Notes: a model not told the origin generated them from the letters alone. Positions 22,580 through 22,933 are shown, counted from the stretch's first letter. The stretch is DNA of 64,000 nucleotides from Escherichia coli (GCF_001677475.2 NZ_CP015229.1), one strand, 5' to 3'. Made by a program: numbers and translations.

Positions 22580-22933
22580 CGCCATTTACCTTCATGATAG
22601 TTCAATTTGAATCAACATGTGATTGATTTTGATTAATCCTGACACTATTTTTTCAGGAAGGCAATGACCATTTTTTGACTTTTTGCCAGGGAAGTTGTTG
22701 TTGATTTTGAGTGTGGAAAGATTTAATGGAATGTGTAATCAAATTAACTTGATGAATTTAAATGATTAATTGTTTCTTTGTGTGAATCACATACTTTCGT
22801 TGTGGAATTATTTGCGTGCCGCGTCACATTTAATCATAAATAATCTTGTTGTGATTACTTTTGAAAATTAGAGTGAGTACACAACATTCCGGGTGTGTGG
22901 AATACCCGGTTACCTCTTCTTCAGGAGATCGTT
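22580..22933. promoter_or_regulatory. ulaG/ulaA divergent control region
   Basis: 354-bp AT-rich spacer between divergent ulaG and ulaA; UlaR/CRP/IHF sites expected from literature but not mapped here. Confidence 0.55.

Follow-up and report, generated by a model that had tools for sequence, protein, structure and literature searches.

A conserved pair of phased, probable operator arrays in the ulaG/ulaA spacer of an Escherichia chromosome, most likely working as in E. coli K-12

DeoR at deoCABD and GlpR at the divergent glpTQ/glpACB genes are DeoR-family sugar-phosphate repressors that act through multiple phased operators and looping. At class I CRP-dependent promoters such as lacP1 the CRP site is centred at -61.5; the centres of class I sites lie at -61.5, or at -71.5, -82.5 and so on from the transcription start site (TSS). 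The ula region of E. coli K-12 has reportedly been studied by Campos, Baldoma, Aguilar and Badia in 2004 (J Bacteriol 186:1720) and by Garces et al. in 2008 (Biochemistry 47:11424). Its repressor UlaR is a member of the DeoR family that occupies four operator sequences in tetrameric form, and L-ascorbate-6-phosphate turns the tetramers into dimers, which then dissociate from the DNA (PMC3219644, with reference to Campos 2004 and Garces 2008); binding as well as release by L-ascorbate-6-phosphate are known for K-12 (PMC3219644, PMC5934670). UlaR and IHF repress ulaABCDEF and CRP activates it (bioRxiv 10.1101/2020.09.08.288738), and deletion of ihf derepresses ulaADEFG (PMC8546960). In genomic SELEX the main UlaR peak is located within the K-12 ulaG/ulaA spacer (PMC4797297, PMC5934670), and the SELEX papers also give a weak UlaR peak upstream of ulaR. 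For ulaGp “two binding sites” are listed and the IHF position is described as unknown (bioRxiv 10.1101/2024.12.09.627516). A 20-bp UlaR decoy, TGATTAATCATGAACAATCA, has been published as well (PMC7826281 Table S4).

We analyzed the ulaG/ulaA spacer in a window of 64 kb, i.e. the whole stretch of DNA under study (64,000 nucleotides), to which all positions refer. The spacer comprises exactly 354 bp (22580–22933); it is bounded by the start codon of ulaG, which reads CAT on the + strand and ends at 22579, and by the ATG of ulaA, whose first base is 22934. An earlier reading of the sequence alone, in the following the sequence-only reading, had given the same coordinates and had described the spacer as AT-rich. 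Its GC content is indeed 33.9%, compared with 51.2% for the window and 52–53% for the flanking genes, and equally AT-rich 354-bp windows make up 1.1% of all such windows in the 64 kb. The attribute “large” is justified in relative terms: in the annotation of the region in E. coli IAI39 six divergent spacers measure 88–354 bp and this one is the longest, but the yjfY/rpsF spacer is close to it with 326 bp. ulaG and ulaA are divergently transcribed and ulaR is located downstream of ulaG. The genes ulaR, ulaG and ulaA to ulaF have proper start and stop codons, no internal stops and K-12 lengths (Table 1), in agreement with the proposed intact set, and window and K-12 are colinear from yjfP to ulaF. 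The UlaR proteins of the two do not differ (100% identity) and the other ula proteins show 96–100% identity; UlaG is in addition 100% identical to UlaG of Escherichia whittamii on the amino acid level.

When compared with K-12 MG1655, both spacers are 354 bp long and align without indels, with 20 substitutions (94.4% identity). Together with the synteny this makes the spacer the ortholog of the K-12 spacer and bears out its designation as the ulaG/ulaA divergent control region; its supposed control by UlaR, CRP and IHF is likewise confirmed for K-12 (PMC3219644, bioRxiv 10.1101/2020.09.08.288738, PMC8546960, PMC5934670). The ulaG/ulaA junction was matched in 5,220 of 5,426 complete E. coli genomes. 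We are therefore confident that this is an Escherichia ortholog of the regulatory region between ulaG and ulaABCDEF in K-12 and that it most likely works in the same way. The region as such is already known and experimentally characterized in K-12, and the copy in the window is intact and ordinary. Since it is intact, regulation and use of L-ascorbate in the strain are very probably the same as in K-12, as judged from the open reading frames.

Table 1. Features of the ulaG/ulaA spacer and the neighboring ula genes. Positions refer to the window; a dot in the strand column means that no single strand is assigned. Matches out of 20 are to the published UlaR decoy TGATTAATCATGAACAATCA.
Feature	Position	Strand	Remarks
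ulaR, gene of DeoR-family repressor, 251 aa	20652..21407	-	colinear with K-12 b4191, 100% amino acid identity, without internal stops
ulaG, gene of L-ascorbate-6-phosphate lactonase, 354 aa	21515..22579	-	intact; 99.7% amino acid identity to K-12
Candidate UlaR operator G1, TGATTCAAATTGAACTATCA	22595..22614	-	15/20 to decoy; tied second-best in 64 kb
ulaG-side array	22600..22634	.	GTTCA 22600, AATCA 22610, TGATT 22620, TGATT 22630; quasi-palindromic; 11/11 to template on both strands
Candidate UlaR operator G2, GGATTAATCAAAATCAATCA	22620..22639	-	16/20 to decoy; best of whole window; P=0.005 (spacer shuffles)
Putative ulaG promoter	22636..22664	-	-35 TTGCCT 22664..22659, extended -10 TG 22644..22643, -10 CAGGAT 22641..22636; putative TSS ~22629
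TGTGGAA copy 1	22712..22718	+	in poorly conserved centre; TATGGAA in K-12
AT-rich centre, best IHF-like matches	22737..22771	.	AATCAA core 22737–22742; 8/9 match AATTAATCATTTA 22759–22771 on - strand
TGTGGAAT at TGTGGAA copy 2	22801..22808	+	abuts CRP-type site on its upstream side; only GGAA..ATTTGCG partly conserved
CRP-type site ATTTGCGTGCCGCGTCACATTT	22810..22831	.	core TGCGT-GCCGCG-TCACA (TGCGT-N6-TCACA) 22813–22828, centre 22820.5
Candidate UlaR operator A1, CATTTAATCATAAATAATCT	22827..22846	+	14/20 to decoy; 232 bp from G1
ulaA-side array	22832..22866	.	AATCA 22832, AATCT 22842, TGATT 22852, TGAAA 22862; 11/11 to template
Putative ulaA promoter	22846..22874	+	-35 TTGTTG 22846–22851, 17-bp spacer, -10 TAGAGT 22869–22874; putative TSS ~22881
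Candidate UlaR operator A2, TGATTACTTTTGAAAATTAG	22852..22871	+	13/20 to decoy; 232 bp from G2
Predicted ulaA leader hairpin, CCGGGTGT-GTGGA-ATACCCGG	22889..22909	+	MFE structure; ~+9 to +29 of putative leader
ulaA Shine-Dalgarno sequence AGGAG	22923..22927	+	ATG 22934–22936; GGAG at least 95% conserved
ulaABCDEF operon	22934..27340	+	six genes intact, K-12 lengths, 96–100% amino acid identity
ulaA	22934..24331	+	
ulaB	24347..24652	+	
ulaC	24662..25126	+	
ulaD	25140..25790	+	
ulaE	25800..26654	+	
ulaF	26654..27340	+	

During inspection of the surroundings a few further features were noticed. For the 24 kb around ula (12000–36000) no complete E. coli genome exceeded 97.5% identity, whereas some E. 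coli genomes reached 99.1% in the cysQ-ytfJ segment (47500–49700). This mosaic divergence points to an Escherichia chromosome whose ula segment is somewhat divergent. The cysQ-ytfJ segment includes the lowest-GC part of the window (48241–49447, minimum 27.7%) and, at 48536–49447, a hypothetical ORF of 303 aa located between cysQ and ytfJ; the 2.2-kb segment with this ORF is covered to at least 80% in ~1,610 of 5,426 E. coli genomes. Between yjfZ and ytfB (~30646–38100) there is an accessory cluster with genes for an MFS transporter, an FAD-dependent oxidoreductase, a CoA-transferase, an enoyl-CoA hydratase, a sugar-phosphate isomerase, a ketoacyl reductase and a TetR regulator. This cluster also occurs in E. 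coli IAI39 and CE10 and is, to our knowledge, absent from K-12. In the ulaG-ulaR spacer (21408–21514) an inverted repeat CCGGATAGCG...CGCTATCCGG at ~21470–21501, just 3’ of ulaG, has a terminator-like or REP-like appearance. TGATT/TGAAA words occur in the same spacer 5’ of ulaR, and a relaxed scan for the array template described below found no match of at least 8/11 in this ulaR upstream region. Finally, a GGAGATC direct repeat (22924–22942) flanks the ulaA start codon, and in the MFE fold the AGGA of the ulaA Shine-Dalgarno sequence is paired with codons 3–4 (UCCU).

In order to compare the spacer across species, ulaG loci were gathered from 80 Enterobacterales species and the ulaG/ulaA spacers were extracted (81 spacers). 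In most of the ~80 species the spacer is 351–367 bp long, and all spacers are AT-rich (GC 0.30–0.43). An alignment of 76 sequences displayed two strongly conserved blocks, 22602–22666 and 22803–22885, with a poorly conserved centre between them. The 20 substitutions that separate the window from K-12 all fall outside the 80 columns with a conservation of 90% or more (Fisher P=0.005).

The dominant signal in the spacer consists of two 35-bp arrays of AATCA/TGATT pentamers with a 10-bp phase, one on the ulaG side and one on the ulaA side (Table 1). Both follow the pattern AATCA-N5-AATCA-N5-TGATT-N5-TGATT, from which we took 11 core bases as a template. In the whole 64 kb the template matched only at 22600, at 22832 and, on the other strand, at 22634, the latter because the ulaG-side array is palindromic; these 3 matches compare with 0.0005 expected per shuffled spacer. 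Nearly all of the 81 Enterobacterales spacers contain exactly two arrays. The core triplets are conserved in at least 95% of the 76 aligned sequences: TCA 22602, TCA 22612, TGA 22620 and TGA 22630 on the ulaG side, and TCA 22834, TCT 22844, TGA 22852 and TGA 22862 on the ulaA side. The two arrays are direct repeats of each other with an offset of 232 bp. The strongest direct repeat of the spacer, TGTGATTnnTTTTGA at 22618, 22696 and 22850, had not been named in the sequence-only reading.

The arrays are probably binding sites of the DeoR-type repressor UlaR. When the published decoy was compared with the whole window, its best matches fell on the arrays, as two 20-mers per side, 25 bp apart (G1 and G2, A1 and A2 in Table 1). 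Two 20-mers per side fit the four operators, two per promoter, that are described for K-12; the boundaries of the individual operators as given in Table 1 are putative.

We considered where the arrays are located relative to the two promoters. On the ulaA side five bases of the -10 hexamer TAGAGT (T, A, A, G and T) reach a conservation of at least 95%, and the -35 hexamer TTGTTG is conserved in its TTG. A start at ~22881 would give a leader of 53 nt and place the array at ~-49 to -15. On the ulaG side, conservation among the 81 spacers amounts to 74–78 for the TTG, 74–76 for the extended -10 TG, 80 for A2 and 75 for T6 of the -10 hexamer, and the spacing is fixed in 71 of 81. The hexamer CAGGAT itself matches the consensus at 3/6 positions. 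With a start at ~22629 the ulaG-side array would lie at ~-5 to +30, so that the arrays differ in position relative to their promoters, which we count against the model. The supplements of Kim 2012, searched for mapped TSSs, do not mention ulaG or ulaA. An in-frame ATG at 22585, two codons 5’ of the annotated ulaG start, would extend the ORF to 356 aa; it is probably irrelevant, but bears on where the ulaG leader must begin.

A more symmetrical arrangement would result if ulaG were transcribed from the consensus-like ATCACA-18-TATCAT (22623..22594). This promoter almost mirrors the place of the ulaA promoter relative to its array, UlaR would occlude -35 and spacer at both promoters, and the rest of the model would remain unchanged. 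The same hexamers are given for K-12 in PMC3946193, and in a consensus scan they were the sole sigma-70-like match in the spacer (9/12). However, one such match compares with 1.7 expected and is no more than chance. The TATCAT region is 40–70% conserved and absent from the majority sequence, and a TSS at ~22587 would leave a ulaG leader of ~8 nt in which the GAAGG ribosome-binding sequence is lost, while 71 of 81 species have retained TTGCnn-N14-TGnnAnnnT, the alternative. Because of the poor conservation and the almost missing leader we rejected ATCACA-18-TATCAT as the main ulaG promoter and keep it as a rival that we regard as rather unlikely. In the following the extended -10 promoter is used.

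The sequence-only reading had drawn attention to several TGTGA/TCACA half sites. There are five such words (TGTGA at 22618, 22781 and 22850 on the + strand, TCACA at 22787 and 22824) where dinucleotide shuffles let 1.9 be expected (P=0.03), and the observation as such is correct. Since CRP is a known activator of ulaABCDEF (bioRxiv 10.1101/2020.09.08.288738), the words could be taken as multiple CRP half-sites in a spacer under mainly multi-site CRP control. We consider this very improbable in view of what the single words turned out to be. TGTGA 22618 and 22850 each belong to the TGTGATT of one array, within the conserved operator repeat TGTGATT..TTTTGA. TGTGA 22781 and TCACA 22787 are unconserved and form a TGTGA-N1-TCACA palindrome, whose 1-bp spacing is wrong for CRP and whose TCACA is missing in K-12. 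Only TCACA 22824 has a partner at N6 spacing and is part of a CRP-type site. The words are therefore of little value as evidence: two of five lie in arrays and two of five are unconserved. The palindrome itself, TGTGAATCACA, is 11 bp long (22781–22791) and situated in the unconserved centre; K-12 has TGTGAATCCCA at this position (TCCCA).

No other sequence in the spacer comes as close to TGTGA-N6-TCACA as the CRP-type site, which matches at 8/10 positions, its left half (TGCGT) being poor. Considering the spacer alone, one site of at least 8/10 compares with 0.39 expected from shuffles (P=0.32). It was cross-species conservation alone that rescued the site as a candidate: conservation reaches 95% or more in TCACA and TTTGCG, whose distance from the ulaA-side array is fixed. 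Its centre would be at ~-60.5 from the putative ulaA TSS, which corresponds to class I geometry and is consistent with an action of CRP on ulaA only.

Apart from the TGTGA/TCACA words, TGTG occurs 12 times in the spacer (4.9 expected, P=0.0006) and TGTGGAA three times, at 22712, 22801 and 22896 (0.12 expected, P~2e-4). The number of distinct repeated 8-mers, 6 versus 3.8 expected, is not unusual (P=0.23). Of the runs of direct repeats that had been proposed, the example TGTGGAAT is present twice (22801 and 22896), but repeated 8-mers overall do not exceed chance. As evidence for control sites this repeat is weak: it is not kept as a repeat across genera, and one copy forms the loop of a leader hairpin (see below).

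These words could also be by-products of an AT-rich low-complexity composition, with TGTG, TGTGGAA and TGATT arising in what is chiefly an H-NS-bound, silenced promoter region. The low GC content and the chance level of repeated 8-mers are in line with this view, and the K-12 spacer is H-NS-bound and classified as a “type-A” spacer bound by RpoD holoenzyme (PMC3946193). Nevertheless, there is little to recommend it as the chief explanation, since shuffles that preserve dinucleotides fail to yield either the arrays or three TGTGGAA copies. Moreover, the arrays are kept base for base and in 10-bp phase in ~80 species while the AT-rich centre drifts. Binding of H-NS is compatible with specific control, yet it leaves the arrays and TGTGGAA unexplained. 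That the AATCA/TGATT arrays serve another regulator, e.g. FNR (TTGAT-N4-ATCAA) in anaerobic control, is hardly credible, even though an anaerobic pathway is ascribed to ula and the ulaG-side array contains an FNR-like match of 9/10, TTGATTTTGATTAA (22623–22636): this match is not significant (P=0.08), is 8/10 in K-12 and occurs in 5 of 80 species, the conserved triplets follow a 10-bp TCA/TCA/TGA/TGA pattern and not FNR spacing, and it is the UlaR decoy that matches the arrays best.

For IHF the consensus scan of the spacer gave three matches at 8/9 and none at 9/9, with 1.24 expected (P=0.13), and in K-12 no 8/9 match was found between the arrays. The block 22744–22771 is moderately conserved, and the IHF-like matches of other genera cluster near the midpoint of the loop. 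A further decoy match of 14/20 at 22753–22772, in the loop centre, overlaps the best IHF-like match and this moderately conserved AT-rich block; it is not significant (P=0.18). In the motif scans that had been suggested, the UlaR-type arrays stood out far above background, and CRP and IHF remained at chance level. In AT-rich DNA, single-sequence scans for CRP and IHF cannot confirm sites; phylogenetic footprinting can.

Next to the arrays themselves, their distance is of interest. Here it corresponds to 22.1 helical turns at 10.5 bp/turn. Across the 81 spacers the distance is 231–232 bp in 11 species and 240–244 bp in 66, with single cases of 237, 246, 249 and 251 bp. At a period of 10.5 bp the mean resultant length is R=0.81, a value that the common descent of the species makes too high. 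If the arrays have to face the same side of the helix, clades are expected to differ by one full helical turn, as they do here, in line with the loop model published for UlaR; the phasing is suggestive, given that the species are related. The 10–11-bp AA/TT periodicity of the looped DNA is weak, with a mean z of 1.42 across species and 0.59 in the window.

Taken together, we propose the following model. The present analysis yielded the orthology of the spacer, the integrity of the genes, the arrays together with how they are conserved and phased, and the conservation of the CRP-type site and promoter hexamers; for the identity of the proteins, the switching between tetramer and dimer, looping and the roles of IHF and CRP we rely on the K-12 literature, and we infer the operator boundaries, both TSSs and the class of CRP activation. 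UlaR would bind the two quasi-palindromic four-pentamer arrays, each of which can be read as two 20-bp operators. The ulaA-side array would cover the -35 hexamer and spacer of the putative ulaA promoter, and the ulaG-side array the stretch around the putative ulaG start. As the arrays are 232 bp or 22 helical turns apart, UlaR tetramers could bridge them, with the AT-rich centre looped out and bending by IHF as a help. L-ascorbate-6-phosphate made by the UlaABC PTS would convert the tetramers into dimers, which leave the DNA. cAMP-CRP at the CRP-type site would activate ulaA only.

We noticed a structurally conserved element in the predicted ulaA leader. The TGTGGAAT copy at 22896–22903 spans the loop of a hairpin close to the putative TSS (Table 1), which is predicted to fold stably. 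In an alignment of 18 sequences 80% of the cells of the named helix are paired, compared with 24–48% when the partner is slid, and four pairs show double changes. In a test that needs no alignment, 72 distinct leaders folded better over their first 42 nt than shuffles did (mean z -1.21), while three control segments were at ~0. The hairpin surfaced only when the structure was named beforehand or in this alignment-free test, as RNAalifold predicted no structure on the same alignment of the leaders, made with MAFFT. Across Enterobacterales position and pairing are kept, with compensatory changes, whereas the sequence differs between genera; the loops of Escherichia and of some Citrobacter share the word GTGGAA. 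No family of Rfam 15 matched the ulaA leader hairpin, the sole hit being a chance match to a eukaryotic lncRNA model with 18 bits versus a gathering score of 60. Such a hairpin could affect mRNA stability or be the target of a protein or sRNA. It is possible, and we put it forward tentatively, that the hairpin is an undescribed post-transcriptional element of ula and that the one-turn quantization of the array distance is a selected constraint of the UlaR loop in Enterobacterales.

As a textbook-type regulatory spacer the region carries little weight for discovery. It illustrates that eye-catching words such as TGTGA or TGTGGAAT are poor guides to functional sites. The analysis supplies window coordinates for the operator arrays, promoters and CRP-type site, and it makes two small comparative additions, the operator spacing in steps of one turn and the conserved leader hairpin, both testable in K-12.

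In comparison to the K-12 ulaG-ulaABCDEF region the locus, the flanking genes, the length, the UlaR protein and all positions conserved across species are unchanged. The substitutions cluster in the poorly conserved centre (22739–22800). Within the CRP-type site the left half is TGCGT in the window and TGCGG in K-12, and one more substitution is located in the spacer of the site; the TGTGAATCACA palindrome is specific to the window, which also has the 9/10 FNR-like match. We found no evidence that these differences change function. The ula region resembles lacP1 in a single candidate CRP-type 22-mer, which would be centred ~60.5 bp 5’ of the putative ulaA TSS, and in a weak -35 hexamer (TTGTTG). 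It differs in that the left half-site TGCGT is poor, the TSS is a predicted one and the site abuts the first UlaR pentamer. As in the DeoR and GlpR systems, there are several short putative half-sites phased by one turn, and operators hundreds of bp apart would cooperate, with CRP and IHF as accessory factors and a sugar phosphate as inducer. In contrast to these systems the half-site word is AATCA/TGATT, both operator sets are located in one divergent spacer, and the predicted loop of 231–244 bp is conserved in steps of one helical turn.
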